From NCBI GenBank assembly GCA_003158735.1, contig PMLB01000226.1:687-64686 (forward strand): a stretch of DNA of 64,000 bases, written 5' to 3'. The notes below the pieces were generated by a model. That model was not told the origin of the DNA. It ran no database searches and was given only the letters and a program-made list of their open reading frames with translations. The translations under genes and the position numbers were made by a program. Positions 13,209 through 23,489 of this stretch are shown in pieces. How positions within the stretch are numbered: the first letter of the stretch is position 1; each line of letters opens with the position of its first letter. This stretch comes from Myxococcales bacterium. GTDB taxonomy: Bacteria > Myxococcota_A > Polyangia > Fen-1088.

Positions 13209-13937
13209 TCAGTGATTCCTCACTCGCAGTTGGCGTTTGTAGGCGTCCCGAATCGCCTTGCCAAGTCTGCTCGACACGACTTCGTACTTGTCAAAGTCGC
13301 GAATATTCTCCTGACGCAGATGGAGCTGGCCTTCGCCGGTGTTTCCGCGATGCTGGCCTTTTGAGTAGGCGCGGTGAGTCTTGAGCTCATGCGAGGACAG
13401 AATCCAATAGCGAATCCTGTCGCGCCAAACGGCAATCCACACGAAGACGTCACAGCAGGCTGGTTTCACCTGCTGAAAGTTCATCCAAAACGGTTGAGTG
13501 GACTCCGACGATAGCGCTTTGACATAGAGAGGTTCATCGCTGCTGGTGTCAACTGCGCGCGAGGCCTTCACCTCGATTCGAATTCGTCCGTCGAGTAGGA
13601 AGTCGTATTGCCCAGAGTAGTTGGGGTCGAATTTCTTGGACGGCTTGGACAGGTCCGGAACCAGTTCTTTCAGGTGCCCCTGCGCCCACGCTTCACCGAA
13701 GGTCCGAGGTGCACTGATCTCGAAGATGTAGAGAAACGCATTCCGTTCCAAGTAGCTGTCGCGCATCTCGTAGTACTGATCGAGCGACAGCACGTCGCGG
13801 CCAAGTAGTGTCGAGATGAGATACTCGAACTCATTGAATGGATAGACTGAATAGATCTCATCAATCCTTGCCCGAACGGCCTTGCCATCGGGCAGCTTGG
13901 CCACCAATTCGTCGAGCTGTTTCCGTAGCGTCTGCAT
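13209..13937 (-). CDS. putative Type II restriction endonuclease (PD-(D/E)xK-like)
   Basis: Internal start MQTLRKQL lies 4 nt after the methyltransferase stop; the ORF-track extension overlaps the MTase. Candidate catalytic signature is YDFLLDGRIRIEVKASR. AT-richer than the flanks. No family recognised beyond the motif. Confidence 0.5.
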   Translation of the reverse strand: MQTLRKQLDELVAKLPDGKAVRARIDEIYSVYPFNEFEYLISTLLGRDVLSLDQYYEMRDSYLERNAFLYIFEISAPRTFGEAWAQGHLKELVPDLSKPSKKFDPNYSGQYDFLLDGRIRIEVKASRAVDTSSDEPLYVKALSSESTQPFWMNFQQVKPACCDVFVWIAVWRDRIRYWILSSHELKTHRAYSKGQHRGNTGEGQLHLRQENIRDFDKYEVVSSRLGKAIRDAYKRQLRVRNH

Positions 13938-13941
13938 CTTC

Positions 13942-14934
13942 TCAGAATAGCGTTGGCTGGGTTGACCGATCCGCCGCCGTATCGGAAGGATGCGGTAGCA
14001 TACTGGCAGGAAGCTCCTTTTCAAACGCGTGGCCGTTCTGCCAGCCAGTCTTGCCGGACGTGCGAAAATGTTCGAGACGGCGAATAGCAATCTCGCAGTA
14101 GACCGGGTCGACGTCGGCCGTATAGCAACGGCGACCGGCGATCTCAGCCGCCAAGAGAGTGGTGCCGGAATGGGAGAAGAAGTCGACGACAAGATCCGCA
14201 GGGCGCGAACTTGCGCGGATAATGCGGTCGACGCTCTTCAGCGGTTTCTGAGCGTAGCAACCGGACACGTTCTCTTGGAGTCGATAGAAGACTTGCTGAA
14301 TATCAACCCAGACATTGCCAGCGCGGATCGTGTCGCGCTTGCCACGTTCCAGATTCTCGGTGCGCTCACCTCCAACGTCCTTGTAGTATCCACGAAGCGT
14401 TTTAGGGATGTCTGTGTACTCAGCTTCAATGTTGAATGCTGGGTTGCCACGGACGTAGTAGAGCAATTCCTGGCGTACGGCCATCCAGTTCTTCTGGGTT
14501 CCATATCCCCTTTGGTTCCGCACGGTGATGAAGCTTCGCGCCTGGATCGGAAATTCACGCATCAGGATCATGAACTCTGGGAGGGGCTGGAAGTGGTCTC
14601 GCTGGTCCGCTCCGAGCCAAACGTAGAGCGAACTGTCCGGCGCAAGGGCTCCCAGCGTGTTCGTAACCCAGCAGCGAGCCCACGCGATGTAGTCGCGGAC
14701 GCTCCGTGTCTCGAACGCCACGAGGTTGTAGGGCGGATCTTGGATCGCCAGGCTGGCAAGCTTGCGGTCCATGAGGGAAGACACCGCTGAAGCGTCGGCT
14801 GCATCAATGCATGCCACTCGGTGTCCGGATACTGAATCGGTCCACATGCCTCCAGGCTTGAGGCGACAAAGCGGAAGCAGTTTCGCCCGCACCTCCGGTT
14901 GCTCGTCAATTCTCGGCAAGGGGTTGTTGTGCAT
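13942..14934 (-). CDS. beta-class N6-adenine/N4-cytosine DNA methyltransferase
   Basis: Motif IV (IQDPPYN) lies near the N-terminus and motif I (VVDFFSHSGTTLLAAEIAGR) near the C-terminus. This is the permuted order of PF01555-type MTases. Confidence 0.85.
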   Translation of the reverse strand: MHNNPLPRIDEQPEVRAKLLPLCRLKPGGMWTDSVSGHRVACIDAADASAVSSLMDRKLASLAIQDPPYNLVAFETRSVRDYIAWARCWVTNTLGALAPDSSLYVWLGADQRDHFQPLPEFMILMREFPIQARSFITVRNQRGYGTQKNWMAVRQELLYYVRGNPAFNIEAEYTDIPKTLRGYYKDVGGERTENLERGKRDTIRAGNVWVDIQQVFYRLQENVSGCYAQKPLKSVDRIIRASSRPADLVVDFFSHSGTTLLAAEIAGRRCYTADVDPVYCEIAIRRLEHFRTSGKTGWQNGHAFEKELPASMLPHPSDTAADRSTQPTLF

Positions 14935-17634: not shown

Positions 17635-18624
17635 ATGACCAGGTTCCAGATGCTCAGCCGAACCATGGGGGCTCTTGGGGGGGCCGCCCTCCTGGCCATC
17701 GTCGCCTTGGTGGCATGCGGGGGCCCTGTGCCGATCGCGGGCAGCAGCAGCCTGATCGGCTCCGGTGGGAGCCAGGGCACCCACACCGACTTGGGGCTCA
17801 ACACGAACCCGGGTACCTCGACCAACCCGGGGAGCGGGGGGGCGACTGCCCAGTGGCCTCCCGCGGGCTACACCAACGACACACCTGTGGCTGTTGGTCG
17901 CTATGCGCTGGGTCCAGAAATCACAGCGTCCACGGTCGACCCCACGACCGGAGACATTAATGGGACTGCAGCCAGCAACTGCGTGGCTTTCCTCGGCGTG
18001 GTACGCGATTTCAAGATGGGGAATCAAACCGGCGGGCACCCGGATTTCGAGACGGCGCCGACCGGAGACGAACCGGGGATCGTGGCCAGCACCCTGGGCG
18101 CAGACAACAAGCCGGTTTATGCGGCGACATTGCGGCAACCGACGGGGTCCACCACAGGCCCGGACAACTTCAACCAGTGGTACAACAGTGTTTCCGGGGT
18201 CAACATGCCGTATGTGTTGGCGTTGCAACTCGAGAACGTCGGCGGAGTAGCCTCTTTTCAAGCGACCCAGCCCACCTCTTTCTTTCCGCTAGACGGTGCT
18301 GGGTTTGGCAACGAGGGCCAAAACCACAACTTCTCTTTCACCACAGAGATTCACACCGCCTTCCAATACAGTGGGGGTGAGAACTTCTCATTCAGTGGCG
18401 ATGACGACGTGTGGGTCTTCATCAACAAGAAACTGGTCATTGATATGGGAGGGCGACACGCCCAGGAGACTAAGTCAGTCGCCATCGATTCGCTCGGGCT
18501 GACCAAGGGCAATGTCTACGACCTTGCGGTCTTCCATGCGGAGCGCCACACCAACCAGTCGAATTTCGAGATTCAGACCACGCTGGCTTTCACCAACTGC
18601 GGCGAAGCAATAATCGGCCGGTAA
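17635..18624 (+). CDS. fibro-slime (PA14-like) domain lipoprotein
   Basis: Start chosen at the ATG preceded by AAGGAGG. Lipobox LVAC. Fibro-slime signatures are VRDFKMGNQTGGHPDFE, FNQWYN, FFPLDGAGFGNEGQNHNFSFTTE, FSFSGDDDVWVFINKKLVIDMGG and VFHAERHTNQSNF. Confidence 0.8.
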   Translation: MTRFQMLSRTMGALGGAALLAIVALVACGGPVPIAGSSSLIGSGGSQGTHTDLGLNTNPGTSTNPGSGGATAQWPPAGYTNDTPVAVGRYALGPEITASTVDPTTGDINGTAASNCVAFLGVVRDFKMGNQTGGHPDFETAPTGDEPGIVASTLGADNKPVYAATLRQPTGSTTGPDNFNQWYNSVSGVNMPYVLALQLENVGGVASFQATQPTSFFPLDGAGFGNEGQNHNFSFTTEIHTAFQYSGGENFSFSGDDDVWVFINKKLVIDMGGRHAQETKSVAIDSLGLTKGNVYDLAVFHAERHTNQSNFEIQTTLAFTNCGEAIIGR

Positions 18625-18700
18625 AGGGGCTCGCGCCGCTAGCCGAGCGGCTCATAGGTGCTCTCTGGACTTTGACGGCGGCCCGCGCGATCCGGAGTCT

Positions 18701-18812
18701 CACCACAGAGGGCACAGAGGCCACAGAGGCCGGAAAGAAAGGGTTTCGGATCCGGATCCGAACCCTTCTTTCCTTCCGAGCTGTCTCTGTGAACTCTGTG
18801 CTCTCTGTGGTG
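18701..18812. repeat. 112-bp compound imperfect palindrome (REP/MITE-like) between convergent genes; likely bidirectional terminator
   Basis: The left arm is CACCACAGAGGGCACAGAGGCCACAGAGGCC, three CACAGAGGN units. The right arm is its complement, GCTGTCTCTGTGAACTCTGTGCTCTCTGTGGTG. The centre is a second hairpin, GGAAAGAAAGGGTTTCGGATCC/GGATCCGAACCCTTCTTTCC. Confidence 0.75.
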
Positions 18813-18843
18813 AAATCTGGAGCAAACCTGCGGAAAATTGTGG

Positions 18844-19467
18844 TTAGCACCTATGGCCGAGCGGTTGAGGGCACAGGTCGCGTCGCTTGCAGTCGGCGCA
18901 GGGCTGGCCCCGCCAGATGGCATCGAAAAAGGCCTGCACATCGTCCAGCAGCAGGTCGTCGCGGCTGAGCAGCCCCAGCTCGAAATTTCGCCGGCCCTCG
19001 CCCTTGGCGCCCAGGCCGGCTCCGGTCCAGTTGGCGCTGCCCAGATACACTATGGTGCCGTCGACAACAACGATCTTGCAGTGCACGCGCGGGCACAGGC
19101 GCAGATCGAACGATCCGCGCTGACCGCGGCTGGCTTTCAGGTGGGCGCAGCGGCGCAACTCCTGGCGAAACGGCAGCGAGGGTGGCGCTGCGTGCAGGAT
19201 GCGAATCTCCACGCCTGCGACCACCAGCTCGTCGAAGACCTGCAACACGGACCGATATTCGCCGTTGCGGGCGGTGCGGCGCCGTCCTGGCCGCACCCGC
19301 GCGTCCTCGACCATCAGCTCCTTCAGGTTCGCGGTGGCAATCCACACGCTGTGCTCGGCATTCATCACCGCCTGCACCACGGCTTCATAGTGTCCCCGCC
19401 CGCCAAGCAGGGCCAGCGACACCGGACGTGACACGCGAATGAAGTCCATGATCCGTACCGGACACAC
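18844..19467 (-). CDS. single-HKD phospholipase-D-family protein (Nuc-like nuclease candidate)
   Basis: HKD motif HCKIVVVDGTIVYLGSANWTGAG. About 200 aa is the size typical of dimeric PLD nucleases. An alternative start MDFIRV lies at 19449. Confidence 0.75.
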   Translation of the reverse strand: MCPVRIMDFIRVSRPVSLALLGGRGHYEAVVQAVMNAEHSVWIATANLKELMVEDARVRPGRRRTARNGEYRSVLQVFDELVVAGVEIRILHAAPPSLPFRQELRRCAHLKASRGQRGSFDLRLCPRVHCKIVVVDGTIVYLGSANWTGAGLGAKGEGRRNFELGLLSRDDLLLDDVQAFFDAIWRGQPCADCKRRDLCPQPLGHRC

Positions 19468-19601
19468 TATGTGAATGTCCGAGTGCGAAGCAAATTGCTC
19501 TCGCGGCGGCCTGCGCTGTAGACAGCGCGCGTGGGCCTGGGTAGCGTGCGGGCCATGGCATCCCTGGAATCAGAAACGCGTTTGCGCGAGGTCGGCGCCG
19601 G

Positions 19602-20237
19602 ATGACTGAGCCCACAACGCGCGAGCTGGTGGTCCTGGATTTCGAAACCACGGGCCTCATGCCGGCGCGCGATCGCACCATCGAGGTGGCGGCCACACTT
19701 CTCGTCGATCACCAGCCGGTCGATACCTTCTGTCGGCTGATGCACCCGGGGTTCGCCCTGCCGTCATTCATCACGTCGCTGACCGGGATCACCGACCAGA
19801 TGCTGCGCGGCCAGCCGCGGCCGGAGGATGTCATGCCCGCGTTGCACAGATTCGTGCGCGGCCTTCCCATCGTGGCGCACAACGCTTCCTTCGATCGCGC
19901 CTTCCTGCACGCCGAGTTGGCGCGCGCCGGTCTTCAGCCCGAGAGCGAATTCCTGTGCACCATGCGACTGGCACGCCGACTGGCGCCCGGACTGCCCAGC
20001 TATCGACTCGACACCCTGGTGGACGCCTTGCAAGTGCGCCCATCAAGCGCGCGGCAATTCCACCGCTCGCTGGCCGACGTGAACCACACAGTCGCCATCT
20101 GGAAAGAATTGCACGCGCGTTTCATCGAGCACACCGGCCTGGCCGCACCGCCCGTCGCTGTGCTGAGCACGCTGATGCGCAAATCGAAGAAGCAAGTGCC
20201 GAAGTATCTGGCCTCGCTGCAGGCGGGAAATGGTTGA
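19602..20237 (+). CDS. DEDDh 3'-5' exonuclease (DnaQ/epsilon-like)
   Basis: ExoI is VVLDFETTGL, ExoII is IVAHNASFDRAFL and ExoIII is HRSLADV. Confidence 0.85.
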   Translation: MTEPTTRELVVLDFETTGLMPARDRTIEVAATLLVDHQPVDTFCRLMHPGFALPSFITSLTGITDQMLRGQPRPEDVMPALHRFVRGLPIVAHNASFDRAFLHAELARAGLQPESEFLCTMRLARRLAPGLPSYRLDTLVDALQVRPSSARQFHRSLADVNHTVAIWKELHARFIEHTGLAAPPVAVLSTLMRKSKKQVPKYLASLQAGNG

Positions 20238-20728
20238 GTGACTTTGGTCGCGAGGGCCAAGGCAGCTTAGTCGGCGTCGCTCTGAAGGCAGAGCTTCGAC
20301 GAAAGATAACCACAGAAGTTGCAGGAAGGGTCGACGAAGCCATTGAAGCGCTGGGTTTAGACGACCTAAGGGTCGTCCAAAACCATCTCATTGCCTCGAG
20401 ATGGATTTACAACGAGATTGTCTCATATCTGGACAACTTCTTCCGTGTTGACAGGTCAAACCCCAGAGATTTCTCCATATACCCTGAATTTCAAAGCAGA
20501 ACGTTTCGGTCTCTCCTGATAGATCTTAAGAGTCTAGAGGACAAGGACGGCCAGAACTCCCTTGCTGGCCTTCTAAGGAAATTCGATAAACTCGCAGACT
20601 TAGCGTCCCTCGACGAGGATCCGGAGCGCTCTCCAGAAAGGAATGGCATGGTGGAGGCAATCAAGAAGACTAGGGAATTTCTCAAAGAGATCAGTGAAAA
20701 CCCATATCTTACTTTCGGTGGTCAATAG
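20234..20728 (+). CDS. hypothetical helical protein, possibly coupled to the exonuclease gene
   Basis: The open frame continues through an AT-richer stretch. The only plausible start is TTG at 20234, which overlaps the exonuclease stop (TTGA). The protein sequence (…RWIYNEIVSYLDNFFRVDRSNPRDFSIYPEFQSRTFRSLLIDLKSLEDKDGQ…) looks like genuine coding sequence, but I recognise no family. Confidence 0.35.
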   Translation: MSDFGREGQGSLVGVALKAELRRKITTEVAGRVDEAIEALGLDDLRVVQNHLIASRWIYNEIVSYLDNFFRVDRSNPRDFSIYPEFQSRTFRSLLIDLKSLEDKDGQNSLAGLLRKFDKLADLASLDEDPERSPERNGMVEAIKKTREFLKEISENPYLTFGGQ

Positions 20729-20842
20729 TACCCATAACAAGCCGTTGCAGTGGATGTGGTCACCGCAGTGACATCGTGTAGAATGGTGCGGCCGGCTTGG
20801 CGGCGCCCACACCGGTGAACGTCAAACCGTTAGACGCTCGGA

Positions 20843-21073
20843 ATGGAAGTCAGCATCGACGCACGAAATCTCCGACGCTATTCGGAACGCGAGGCTTTGG
20901 CATTTGTGGACTCGGTCTTGGGCTTTCCCGAAAGCTGGCCGCCCTCGCTCATTGCATTTCGACTCTCTTCGGATTTCCAAGCCGAGTGGAAGTGCGAAGT
21001 TGGCAACTGGCTTCTCCTCGCCCGCGACCACGGCTTTCTCGATCAATTGTTGGGCCGAACCAATCGAGCCTGA
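20843..21073 (+). CDS. hypothetical 76-aa protein
   Basis: ATG-initiated ORF in the AT-richer islet with protein-like composition. No recognisable motif. Confidence 0.3.
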   Translation: MEVSIDARNLRRYSEREALAFVDSVLGFPESWPPSLIAFRLSSDFQAEWKCEVGNWLLLARDHGFLDQLLGRTNRA

Positions 21074-21074
21074 C

Positions 21075-21312
21075 ATGAAGCCTCAAACCTCTCCGTCACA
21101 GGCCCGAATGGCACATGGGATCCTTGCGCAGGAGCTCGCTCCTGCCATGGTCGCGCACTACTTTTCGGGGCTGGGGTGGCGCGCCTCATGGACTGGGAGC
21201 CGTCAACGCCGGGGGTGACGTAGATGTTCGTTTCCAGACTCCGTCGGGTTTGGCTATCGACATACAGGTGAAGACACCTGACCAGCTGGTGAAATCGTCC
21301 CCGGGCGCATAG
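21075..21312 (+). pseudogene. possible frameshifted remnant of a small PD-(D/E)xK-like gene
   Basis: The ATG at 21075 lies 1 nt after the previous stop and gives MKPQTSPSQARMAHGILAQELAPAMVAHYFSGLGW. The coding-like sequence then continues in another frame (GDVDVRFQTPSGLAIDIQVKTPDQLV) after an apparent shift near 21180. Confidence 0.2.
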
Positions 21313-21366
21313 TGCGTGGCGAGAAGAATACAAAGGCTGACATTCAGAAGCCGGCAGGTCGCATCT

Positions 21367-21393
21367 GTTATCACGATGTGATATGGTGATAAC
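21367..21393 (+). promoter_or_regulatory. nested inverted repeat (probable VapB operator) abutting the vapB start
   Basis: GTTATCAC-N11-GTGATAAC, with an inner ATCACgatGTGAT, ends at the vapB ATG (21394). Confidence 0.5.
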
Positions 21394-21621
21394 ATGATCC
21401 GGACGCAGATCTCACTGGATGTCGATGTGTACGCCAGGGCCAAGCGGGTAGCTCGTCGCATGGGTATTTCCGTGGCAGAGCTGGTTAGGCGCGGCTTGGA
21501 GGAGACGATTGCGCGACAGCCCACATCGAAGCCGTGGATGGCGTATGCGGGTAGTATCGAAGGCCGTCCCGAAGACAGCAGCACCGTGGACGAGATTGTC
21601 TACGGGCGAGCGGAGCCGTGA
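21394..21621 (+). CDS. vapB: ribbon-helix-helix antitoxin (VapB-type)
   Basis: 75 aa. N-terminus MIRTQISLDVDVYARAKRVARRMGISVAELVRRGLE. Overlaps the PIN gene by 4 nt. Confidence 0.75.
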   Translation: MIRTQISLDVDVYARAKRVARRMGISVAELVRRGLEETIARQPTSKPWMAYAGSIEGRPEDSSTVDEIVYGRAEP

Positions 21622-22028
21622 CTGAAGCGGTTTTTCTGGATTCGGGAATCTTCATTGCGTTCCTGAACCGCCACGACCAGTGGCATACGCAGGCCGTAGC
21701 TCTGTTTAGCCTGGCGCGGCCACGCTGGAGCACGTCGTATCTGGTTATTGGCGAGGCCTACTCCTGGTTCTTGCATCGGTATGGCGAGGAAGCAGCTCGA
21801 TCCTTCCGGGCCTTCGTGGACAAACTCGACGGTCTCAAGATCCACGACGTGACGGCCGAACATCACCGACAAGTGGGCAGAATGCTCGATCGCCTTCGCG
21901 GTGCGAAGGTTTCGTACGTGGACGCTTCCAGCCTTTGCCTGCTCGAACGACACAAGATCAGGAAGGTCTGGTCGACGGACTTTCACCTTAGTCTCACGGG
22001 TGCGGAAGTGGCGCCTCGCCGATCCTGA
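21618..22028 (+). CDS. vapC: PIN-domain toxin (VapC-type)
   Basis: GTG start overlapping the vapB stop. Acidic PIN residues sit in FLDSGIF, VIGEAY, YVDASS and STDFH contexts. Confidence 0.8.
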   Translation: MTEAVFLDSGIFIAFLNRHDQWHTQAVALFSLARPRWSTSYLVIGEAYSWFLHRYGEEAARSFRAFVDKLDGLKIHDVTAEHHRQVGRMLDRLRGAKVSYVDASSLCLLERHKIRKVWSTDFHLSLTGAEVAPRRS

Positions 22029-22055
22029 AGATGCGAGCCAAACTTCCGATCAGAC

Positions 22056-22472
22056 ATGCGCAGCGTTCCCGTCATCCTCCCACTCCGGCACCATGCAGCC
22101 GCGCTGGCCTTGGTGCTGGTGGCCGCTTGCGCGGGGCCGGCGGCCAACTTGGTGCCCTCGCCGGGGGAGAGCGTCGAGATTCGGGCCAGCTACTACAGTC
22201 GCGCGCTTGTCGGTCGCAAGACGGCCTCGGGCGAGCCCTATGACCCGGCGCTGTTTACGGCGTCGCACGCGACCCTGCCAATGGGAACCATCCTGCGGGT
22301 CACCCGCCTGCCCGACGGTCCATCGGTGGAGGTGCGAGTGAACGATCGCTGTGCCTGCACGCACGGGCGGCAACTGGACCTATCCGAGGCGGCTGCGCGC
22401 CAGCTGAACATGCTGCGACTGGGAACGGTGAAGGTCCGCATCGAGATTCTGGACCGTCGCCCCGGCCGGTGA
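22056..22472 (+). CDS. rlpA: RlpA-like septal-ring lytic transglycosylase (DPBB) lipoprotein
   Basis: Lipobox LVAAC. DPBB signature ASYYSRALVGRKTASGEPYDPALFTASHATLPMGTILRVTRLPDGPSVEVRVNDR. Confidence 0.85.
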   Translation: MRSVPVILPLRHHAAALALVLVAACAGPAANLVPSPGESVEIRASYYSRALVGRKTASGEPYDPALFTASHATLPMGTILRVTRLPDGPSVEVRVNDRCACTHGRQLDLSEAAARQLNMLRLGTVKVRIEILDRRPGR

Positions 22473-22484
22473 GCGGGTATCGAG

Positions 22485-23489
22485 CTACTGCGCGGGCTGC
22501 TGGAAGATCGTGTCGTCTGGGCCGACCGCGGTGTAGCTGCCATCGGGGTTGACCCACACATCCCACAGGAACTCGTGCACGCCGATCGACTGTTCACTCC
22601 AGCTGGTGCCGTCGAAGCGGAAAACCCCCGCGCTGATGCTGTCGCCAGTGCGCTTGGCACCCACGGCGTAGACGCGGTCGGCGCTCGCGCCGTGAATTCC
22701 CAGCAGGGCCGTTTCACCCTCGTGCACGGTGGTCACACTGGTGCCATCGAACCGAAGGATCACGTGTGAGACCTCGGACATCACCTCGCCCACGATAAAC
22801 ACGTTGTCAGGCGAGGAGCCCCACACCGCCCTGAGATTCGCCTGAGTAGGCGTGGGCAGGATCGACCAAGCCGTCCCGTCGTAGCGCAACACGGTGCCCT
22901 GCTCGCCGACCGCCAGCACATTGTCATGCGCCGTTCCCCAAAGGGCGGTCAGTCTGGCTTGGGTGGGGCTGCTCATCGGCTGCCACGAGGTTCCATCGAA
23001 ATGCAGGATGATGCCGAGCGAGCCGGCCAGGAAGACATCGTCGGAGGCCACGCCCCAGAGCGCCCGGCCTTGCCCACCGTTGGGCTCGCTCTCGCGGAAG
23101 CTTTCGCCCAAATCCCACGCCTGCCATTCCCCGCCAAGGCAGCGCTGCACAGTGGTGCCGTTGAATCCGCCGGAAACAAAGAAGTCCTGCGAGCTTTGGC
23201 CCCAGATGTTTGCCAGGGGATACCCGCCTTGGTACAGGGTGACCCAGTTGCCCGTTTCCAGCCGCCGGACCAGCCCGTTTTGACCGCGGTAGCCCGCGAT
23301 GAACAGCTCGCCGTCGGGCGAGCCCCAGATGTGAGCGTTCACAACGAAATTGTCGCCGCAGGGATCGCATCCTTGGCCGCCAATGGTGTCACAGCCCGCC
23401 GCCGAGATCTGCGCGGCAACCGCAACCACCAAAAGTCTTCGATACGCCGTCAACACAAGGTCAGAGTAGTGCACCGCGCCCGCCGACAC
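22485..23489 (-). CDS. beta-propeller lipoprotein (WGxSxxDV-AVG-xILHFDGTxW repeat type)
   Basis: Lipobox ISAAGC. About 6 repeats such as ALWGVASDDVFLAGSLGIILHFDGTSWQ and AVWGSSPDNVFIVGE..VILRFDGTS. Confidence 0.7.
   Translation of the reverse strand: MSAGAVHYSDLVLTAYRRLLVVAVAAQISAAGCDTIGGQGCDPCGDNFVVNAHIWGSPDGELFIAGYRGQNGLVRRLETGNWVTLYQGGYPLANIWGQSSQDFFVSGGFNGTTVQRCLGGEWQAWDLGESFRESEPNGGQGRALWGVASDDVFLAGSLGIILHFDGTSWQPMSSPTQARLTALWGTAHDNVLAVGEQGTVLRYDGTAWSILPTPTQANLRAVWGSSPDNVFIVGEVMSEVSHVILRFDGTSVTTVHEGETALLGIHGASADRVYAVGAKRTGDSISAGVFRFDGTSWSEQSIGVHEFLWDVWVNPDGSYTAVGPDDTIFQQPAQ

Follow-up and report, generated by a model that had tools for sequence, protein, structure and literature searches.

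Hotspots flanked by core genes have been described in bacteria, among them cDHS1 and cDHS2 in Pseudomonas aeruginosa (PMC10250203), and the defense islands of E. coli provide another hotspot case for comparison (PMC10121019). The gain and decay of toxin-antitoxin pairs at spots of high turnover has likewise been described (PMC13617665). The locus discussed here, positions 18,844 to 22,028 of a 64,000-nucleotide stretch of contig PMLB01000226.1 (Myxococcales bacterium, assembly GCA_003158735.1; the whole stretch is referred to as the window), is of a known type, a variable hotspot with a toxin-antitoxin pair and gene debris, and reflects ordinary genome turnover rather than a novel system. The original prediction, made from the letters of the window alone, saw in it a candidate defense or DNA-processing module composed of a phospholipase D (PLD)-family protein, a DEDDh exonuclease, open reading frames (ORFs) of no recognized family, and vapBC. 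Our preferred reading, to which we give a probability of roughly 0.75, is that there is no single system at this locus and that three separate things have to be distinguished: two conserved enzymes, a variable slot, and the content of that slot.

The two enzymes, a PLD phosphodiesterase and a DnaQ-like DEDDh 3'-5' exonuclease, would be chromosomal genes that are conserved independently of each other. The slot would be a strain-variable interval directly 3' of the exonuclease gene, with rlpA/osmC as its right boundary, in which recombination keeps swapping the cargo and gene stubs remain at the borders. Its content in this strain would amount to one intact type II vapBC and 1,058 bp of imported, lower-GC gene debris, made up of a 5'-truncated, anchor-less fragment (ORF164), an orphan ORF of 76 codons (ORF76) and a frameshifted remnant. 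Domain identities, intact catalytic motifs, borders, presence or absence among relatives, and transcription were established directly, and nothing points to a coupling between the activities of the PLD protein, the exonuclease and VapBC.

The case for a slot comes from exonuclease loci in related strains, of which 47 were recovered at exonuclease identities of 74-96%. Presence and absence were counted over 37 non-identical loci with at least 700 bp of downstream sequence: vapC occurs in two, and ORF164 and ORF76 in none. Across about seven informative metagenomic contigs the slot measures 0-2.6 kb, and the interval from the exonuclease to rlpA/osmC has five different contents, which makes it a hotspot: that of the window; a PIN/AF2212-like pair, DUF6946, a 224-aa ORF and vapBC (L014); Cys-rich secreted proteins (L016 and L076); a type II restriction-modification (R-M) system (L019, 5980-8105) composed of a 283-aa restriction endonuclease (REase; REase_II PDLC03512, expect value E 1e-83) and a 425-aa methyltransferase (MTase_II); and an empty slot with OsmC directly next (L022 and L025). 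Over these few strains, defense-type cargo is represented by the R-M system of L019 and the toxin-antitoxin pairs of L014, L028 and the window, with the Cys-rich secreted proteins of L016/L076 and the debris of the window making up the remainder. The rlpA-like gene is retained in L014, L016, L019 and L076. The idea of a defense islet therefore survives as far as a high-turnover site with R-M and toxin-antitoxin cargo in sister strains is concerned, but not as a single module of PLD, exonuclease, ORFs and vapBC.

The borders of the slot are sharp in alignments. On the left, blastn homology with relatives ends at 20249 in L015, at 20266 in L014, and at 20279-20280 in L016, L017, L023, L055, L076 and others. 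On the right, homology resumes at 21339-21363 in loci with vapBC (L014, L023, L028), and at 21982-21993, within the last ~40 bp of vapC, in those lacking the pair (L016, L055, L076, L061). Metatranscriptome contigs from other strains part from the window at 21334 and 21345, which independently confirms the right border. Positions 20267-20280, read in reverse complement, are the stub (...DAD and stop) of an AF2212-like antitoxin gene, which is still found in relatives. Conversely, the last ~40 bp of vapC stand alone beside rlpA in L016 (7266-7301), L076 (6611-6650) and L055 (1403-1440), and such 3' stubs are the apparent footprint of toxin-antitoxin loss via replacement. Homologous recombination in the flanks would be the simplest mechanism for the exchange of cargo; neither an integrase nor an att-like repeat was found at the slot, nor a tRNA gene as integration site in the 64-kb window.

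This slot shares with core-gene-flanked hotspots its conserved borders (exonuclease; rlpA/osmC) and strain-specific cargo that includes type II R-M and toxin-antitoxin genes, but it is tiny, much of its cargo is not related to defense, and an integrase, tRNA gene or att site was not found. With respect to how toxin-antitoxin pairs are gained and eroded, the window has an intact vapBC where relatives keep a 3' stub of vapC, and itself keeps the stub of another antitoxin; its vapBC has no linked recombinase. The order of genes is YfhO (-), PA14 (+), PLD (-), exonuclease (+), ORF164 (+), ORF76 (+), the broken ORF, vapB, vapC, the rlpA-like gene, a 334-aa gene (-) and OsmC (-), and the coordinates of the features are collected in Table 1.

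Table 1. Positions of genes, relics and sequence elements at the locus, numbered from the first letter of the window.
Feature	Position	Strand	Remark
MITE-like insertion, 204 bp	18653..18856	.	Terminal inverted repeats, target duplication, hairpin
Single-HKD PLD-superfamily enzyme, 201 aa	18844..19449	-	Pfam PLDc_2, PLDc
Inverted repeat GCGCTGT-AG-ACAGCGC	19513..19528	.	PLD/exonuclease spacer
DinB_2 relic, 16-codon ORF, MASLESETRLREVGAG and stop	19555..19605	+	Overlaps exonuclease ATG (ATGA)
Stand-alone DnaQ-like DEDDh 3'-5' exonuclease, 211 aa	19602..20237	+	RNase_T; left anchor of slot
ORF164, 164 codons, TTG start	20234..20728	+	Apparent fusion of flank codons and 5'-truncated gene copy
Conserved exonuclease 3' flank	20238..20280	.	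blastn homology with relatives
Strain-specific lower-GC cargo patch, 1,058 bp	20281..21338	.	Comparison with relatives
75-bp element, 77% identical in L015	20730..20804	+	After unrelated cargo; L015 1174-1246
ORF76, orphan ORF, 76 codons	20843..21073	+	No family
Broken ORF, frame-shifting	21076..21312	+	Two frames
Inverted repeat TGTTATCACGAT/ATGGTGATAACA	21366..21394	.	Ends on vapB ATG; common to vapBC-bearing relatives
vapB, ribbon-helix-helix antitoxin, 75 aa	21394..21621	+	RHH_1 22.5 bits, cut-off 20.5
vapC, PIN-domain toxin, 136 aa	21618..22028	+	PF01850 40.9 bits, cut-off 23.6
RlpA-like lytic transglycosylase (DPBB), right anchor	22056..22472	+	TIGR00413, 96.6 bits

The patch that is specific to this strain has a GC content of 0.539, where the median of the window is 0.638, and no other kilobase of the 64 kb is as GC-poor; it holds no intact gene from a known family. 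An AT-richer segment had been predicted from about 20240 to 21400, and it is real, although comparison with relatives moves its borders to those given in Table 1. The GC content at third codon positions (GC3) is 0.54 in ORF164, compared with 0.80-0.82 in the PLD and exonuclease genes. Since the 75-bp element is shared with L015 in spite of the unrelated cargo that precedes it there, the patch is itself a mosaic. The sole sigma-70-like site of the patch (TGGTCA-16-TAGAAT, 20757-20784, with the extended -10-like GTGTAGAAT) lies within this element, which may act as a portable promoter or mark a recombination joint. A scan for promoters and terminators gave nothing better than shuffled sequences, and an Rfam scan of 18000-23000 returned nothing meaningful.

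Behind ORF164 the patch contains two further frames. ORF76 exists as an open frame but is an orphan, as a search among 5.8 billion protein clusters returned ORF76 itself and nothing else, and the gene callers disagree (L001/L004 versus L002/L003) on whether to call it or an ORF of 84 codons on the other strand (20822-21076). The sequence that follows is a broken ORF that is readable through only with frame changes, two in this reading. It was once regarded as a frameshifted PD-(D/E)xK nuclease; the frameshifting holds, but the nuclease assignment has no support, given that no significant profile or sequence match was obtained. Pfam offered nothing relevant for it, PHROGs gave only phrog_5335 (E 0.037), a family with no assigned function, and a tblastn search of plasmids with the read-through remnant found no match. 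The resemblance by eye to a 161-aa phrog_29029-like protein of L035 was discarded, as BLASTP produced no alignment between the two. Neither ORF76, nor the antisense 84-aa ORF, nor the broken ORF could be placed in a family with Pfam, NCBIfam, PADLOC or PHROGs.

ORF164 had been described as a helical ORF of no known family that overlaps the exonuclease stop by TTGA (20234-20237), and so it is; the view that the two are coupled fares less well. A word search finds nine homologues and an exhaustive HMMER search 80 clusters (at 50% identity), and these define a family of proteins of ~220 aa (median 222) that begin with an amphipathic helix at the N-terminus and also have a hydrophobic segment, which ORF164 lacks. 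A transmembrane-like segment is present in 51 of the 57 members of at least 200 aa and is absent from ORF164. Alignment to the homologues starts late: residue ~18 of ORF164 falls on residue ~75 of the homologue, and the part upstream is without homology. Moreover, the initial 14 codons (LSDFGREGQGSLVGV) come from exonuclease flank that strains with other cargo have conserved as well, and in the majority of those strains CTG, and not the TTG seen here, is the codon overlapping the exonuclease stop. The late start of the alignment and the flank-encoded codons imply that ORF164 is a 5'-truncated fragment that came to lie in frame with the flank by chance, and its translational coupling to the exonuclease is most likely fortuitous. 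No family was found for ORF164 or three full-length homologues in Pfam, NCBIfam, PHROGs or PADLOC, apart from weak PADLOC matches of ORF164 (E 0.007-0.05), and the AlphaFold2 (AF2) model, all-helical with a mean predicted local distance difference test (pLDDT) score of 79, has no match in the PDB at E <= 0.001. A full-length homologue found no match in tblastn searches of plasmids and phages, and the neighbors of family members in L007-L009 and L086, where a conserved partner was sought, are unrelated, mainly housekeeping genes, none of them a nuclease.

The one complete unit within the slot is vapBC, which had been recognized from the start. Both domains pass the Pfam cut-offs, the acidic residues D8, E46, D102 and D121 of VapC are all present, and the two genes overlap by GTGA (21618-21621). 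Copies of vapB in L014 and L028 are 96% and 83% identical. The pair agrees with VapBC systems in its order (antitoxin, toxin), 4-bp overlap, four acidic PIN residues and an inverted repeat in the promoter, but it reaches no NCBIfam equivalog. By analogy with studied VapBC pairs, the ribbon-helix-helix protein VapB would bind and neutralize VapC, a PIN RNase, and would repress its own promoter through the inverted repeat at the start of vapB, which is the likely VapB operator; loss of VapB would then leave VapC free to cleave cellular RNA, resulting in growth arrest. Along the same lines, vapBC could act as a selfish or stabilizing element at a site of high turnover.

The PLD protein is the product of a conserved chromosomal gene from a large, slowly evolving family. 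Its identification as a single-HKD enzyme is borne out (PLDc_2, E 6e-13; PLDc motif, E 7e-8), and it agrees with the Nuc-like type in having one intact HxK(x)4D(x)6GSxN motif and the PLD fold within about 150-200 aa. There are 4,142 homologues, and the best 120 of the 4,142 have 64-93% identity and ~198 aa. An alignment of 22 homologues has a mean column identity of 75%, and 80 of its positions are invariant, among them H123, K125, D130 and GSAN137-140. All homologues begin MDF(I/V)R, which places the start at ATG 19449 (MDFIRV...). Of 72,556 plasmid records only one carries the gene. On long contigs with PLD identities of 70-78% (L011-L013) the gene is accompanied by RmuC and kinases, by kinases, or by a serpin, and never by a DEDDh exonuclease; RmuC adjoins the PLD gene in L011 and also in L028.

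Single-HKD PLD proteins form homodimers that build one active site, and they are often nucleases. The window's protein would work in the same way, as a nuclease that forms homodimers in the manner of Nuc, NucT or Zucchini, and its function is presumed to be that of a phosphodiesterase or nuclease. Its AF2 model matches NucT, Zucchini, PLD3/4 and F13 with a template-modeling (TM) score of about 0.5 and a Foldseek probability of 1.0, but these matches mix nucleases (NucT, Zucchini, PLD3/4) with lipid-related PLDs (F13, PLD1/2) at similar scores. With Nuc, NucT and Zucchini (PLD6) it shares one HKD motif, a length of ~200 aa and the PLD fold, but similarity in sequence is confined to the surroundings of the motif (E 0.03-0.5). 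It differs further in four invariant cysteines that have no confirmed counterpart there: C119, just ahead of the HKD motif, and C184, C187 and C193 in a C-terminal CxxC...C tail. Together these suggest a metal site.

In this strain the PLD stop codon was hit by an insertion that resembles a miniature inverted-repeat transposable element (MITE). Its ends are inverted repeats of 10 bp (CATAGGTGCT/AGCACCTATG), a target duplication of ~10 bp (CCGAGCGGCT/CCGAGCGGTT) flanks it, and it contains a long, very stable hairpin (dG -114 kcal/mol, z -9.8). The insertion added HRC to the C-terminus (...PLGHRC and stop instead of ...PLG and stop), giving 201 aa as opposed to 198 aa in relatives, and alignment finds it missing from L016, L076, L062, L017 and L054. 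Short RNA contigs stack on the element, and their continuation into unrelated sequence suggests that it belongs to a dispersed repeat family.

The exonuclease assignment holds as predicted (RNase_T, E 7.5e-28), and the five catalytic residues D13, E15, D98, H154 and D159 are all present. The protein matches the PADLOC DEDDh model at E 3e-36, and among solved structures the exonuclease domain of PolC (2p1j, E 4e-22) comes closest. From what is known of the family, the enzyme would strip 3' nucleotides off DNA or RNA. It falls under every NCBIfam equivalog cut-off. In some contigs an exonuclease of ~83% identity sits amid nuclease-type and mobile-element-type genes (L035 and L057; also L034, L053 and L058), among them an MBL-fold protein, a phrog_29029-like protein of 161 aa, proteins of 337 and 413 aa that contain D...E-x-K-like motifs, a protein with an ERCC4 domain and an ArdC-N/IrrE-like metallopeptidase; surroundings of the L035/L057 type may be a larger island.

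The two enzyme genes are indeed divergently oriented, but the 134-bp spacer that had been proposed, with a PLD start at GTG 19467, becomes 152 bp with the start at ATG 19449. The history of this spacer is informative. Six relatives (L014, L015, L022, L026, L027 and L028) have a full DinB_2 gene (PF12867, E 3.7e-11) that overlaps the exonuclease start by the same ATGA as the 16-codon ORF of the window, and the latter, kept in the window and its closest relatives, consists of the first ~7 and last 10 codons of DinB_2 fused in frame. DinB_2 would formerly have led a DinB_2-exonuclease pair and been lost by an internal in-frame deletion, and it is because of this deletion that the PLD and exonuclease genes stand head-to-head. 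What had been taken for a divergent promoter region thus consists of the former spacer between PLD and DinB_2 together with the scar of the deletion, and it is not designed for bidirectional control. The inverted repeat noted in the spacer is present, but it loses its significance: an equally good perfect repeat with 7-nt arms occurs in 14% of 152-bp windows of this DNA, and the repeat survives in L016 and L054, has decayed in L018 and L021, and has its left arm replaced in L076, L017 and L014. A role as operator was discarded on the grounds of this chance-level frequency and lack of conservation.

Several observations weigh against the reading of the locus as three separate things. All of the comparison material consists of fragmentary contigs from metagenome-assembled genomes (MAGs) and metagenomes of similar peat habitats; the window itself is matched by contig PNBR01000584 (GCA_003136135.1) and by many metagenome contigs from peat, fen and permafrost. 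Contigs of eight public metatranscriptomes were placed on 18500-22600, and these, which are without strand information and whose depth is a poor measure of expression, make the ORF164 region the best RNA-covered part of the locus, with transcription in six of the eight, compared to three runs for the exonuclease and one for PLD. In X25 a contig at 20219-20763 reaches a depth of 33, compared with 3.3 at the 3' end of the exonuclease, 2.3 at the 5' end of PLD and 6-8 over vapBC. The ORF164 frame is open over 164 codons at 47.5% GC with GGCGGG 6 nt ahead of the TTG, so that a functional short form of ORF164 is conceivable. Finally, less than 3 kb separates the PLD and exonuclease genes in three different arrangements seen in the closest clade (as divergent neighbors; 2.6 kb apart in L077; flanking vapBC in L028), which could indicate a weak functional linkage and not mere recency.

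The alternative that survives best, although we consider it unlikely, is that ORF164 is a working gene, namely an exapted soluble short form that is translated from TTG and perhaps modulates the exonuclease or serves as accessory or defense cargo. Transcription of the patch is the chief evidence that keeps this explanation alive; in addition, the intact open frame, with its confidently predicted helical fold, retains family motifs such as YLDNFF and NPRDFSIYPE, the TTGA overlap is preceded by GGCGGG, and the identical sequence recurs in 57 metagenome blocks. Such a gene would have to do without the N-terminal helix and transmembrane anchor of nearly all long family members, and would begin with codons from unrelated flank that include the antisense of the antitoxin stub. 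It is moreover missing from all 37 related slots, its family has no conserved partner or nuclease neighbor elsewhere, and the defense models match it weakly, with plasmid and phage matches lacking. Variation within the population, on which a test for selection would depend, is zero, and L065 and L067, considered as diverged copies for such a test, were set aside as uninformative, since both belong to the same strain and their sequences contain numerous indel errors (39 and 108 gap openings). The idea that the ORFs lack homologues or expression applies to ORF76 as regards homologues, but not to ORF164, which has homologues and a transcribed region. AT-rich foreign DNA inside a GC-rich genome can give rise to spurious transcription, and the simplest account of the RNA over the ORF164 patch would be that such DNA has promoter activity, or that there is read-through.

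A second alternative, which we regard as somewhat less probable still, treats the PLD protein and the exonuclease as linked housekeeping enzymes of DNA repair or recombination, possibly together with RmuC and DinB_2, and the slot as irrelevant. The short distance between the two genes in the three closest-clade arrangements fits this idea, as do the RmuC gene beside PLD in two loci and the DinB_2 gene that overlaps the exonuclease start in six relatives. The linkage fades with distance, however. PLD is near the exonuclease in eight of the 11 loci with at least 87% exonuclease identity and enough upstream flank, in these eight without the unknown ORFs, but in just one of the 22 loci below 87%; the exonuclease is absent near PLD in L011-L013, and RmuC is absent from the 64-kb window. 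Recent common ancestry accounts for the linkage equally well. These counts also bear on the trio of PLD, exonuclease and unknown ORF whose conservation as neighbors was to be expected of a module: the pair is kept without the unknown ORFs, and the trio as such is not conserved. Lower again we place a version in which ORF164 is an expressed, exapted soluble derivative, translationally coupled to the exonuclease and modulating it, or acting as a new defense-type cargo. As a separate matter, the very conserved four-Cys PLD could represent a new family of housekeeping nucleases in Myxococcota-like bacteria.

The locus is, to judge from profile scores and gene content, not DISARM, Mokosh or PDC-S48, and its exonuclease is not the replicative DnaQ. 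In PADLOC and NCBIfam, where a defense module had been expected to register, there are only sub-threshold, domain-level matches to DrmC, MkoB and PDC-S48. The PLD protein scores 36.8 bits on DrmC (NF038319), far from the cut-off of 133, its PADLOC DrmC matches cover the region of the HKD motif only, and none of the genes called over some 8 kb to each side encodes a drmA/drmB helicase or a DUF1998 protein. It matches positions 465-592 of the 610 in the MkoB model, and with 201 aa it is not the large helicase protein of Mokosh. The exonuclease shares all five catalytic residues and strong domain matches with DnaQ/PolC-type enzymes, Cas2-DEDDh and PDC-S48, but stands alone without the extra domains of PDC-S48, DinG and PolC: it covers positions 5-169 of the 411 in the PDC-S48 model, having 211 aa as opposed to 411-512 aa with a C-terminal domain, and it scores 89.7 bits on TIGR01406 for replicative DnaQ (Pol III epsilon), with a cut-off of 222.7. 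Gene calls up to about 8 kb away in both directions include neither CRISPR nor cas genes. The sole recognized defense system found near the locus is a complete type II R-M pair ~4 kb upstream of PLD (13209-14934, minus strand), which lies in a second lower-GC patch and was not part of the original prediction; it combines a REase of 242 aa (PADLOC REase_II PDLC03414, E 1.6e-74) with an N6/N4 DNA methylase of 330 aa (PF01555, E 1.9e-23).

A composite defense or DNA-processing system of PLD, DEDDh exonuclease, unknown ORFs and vapBC, expressed from the divergent spacer, is highly improbable, for even though both kinds of nuclease domain are known in defense systems and are echoed here in weak PLD matches to the DrmC and MkoB models and in exonuclease matches to the DEDDh and PDC-S48 models, and R-M and toxin-antitoxin genes occur at the same site in relatives and R-M genes 4 kb upstream, synteny contradicts it by giving the components separate evolutionary histories, the divergent layout was created by the DinB_2 deletion, the palindrome is at chance level and unconserved, the DrmC score is far too low and the PDC-S48 match is confined to the exonuclease domain, and the PLD family evolves slowly.

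The reading of the locus as two conserved enzymes beside a variable slot makes it a cautionary case, in which two nucleases, odd ORFs and a toxin-antitoxin pair resembled a defense islet and comparison with sister strains dissolved the resemblance. It also points to a site in uncultured peat Myxococcales, the 3' end of this exonuclease gene, where R-M and toxin-antitoxin cargo lands, and knowledge of this site could aid in the mining of their MAGs. Two uncharacterized families may deserve biochemistry: the four-Cys, single-HKD PLD proteins, and the membrane-anchored proteins of ~220 aa to which ORF164 belongs.

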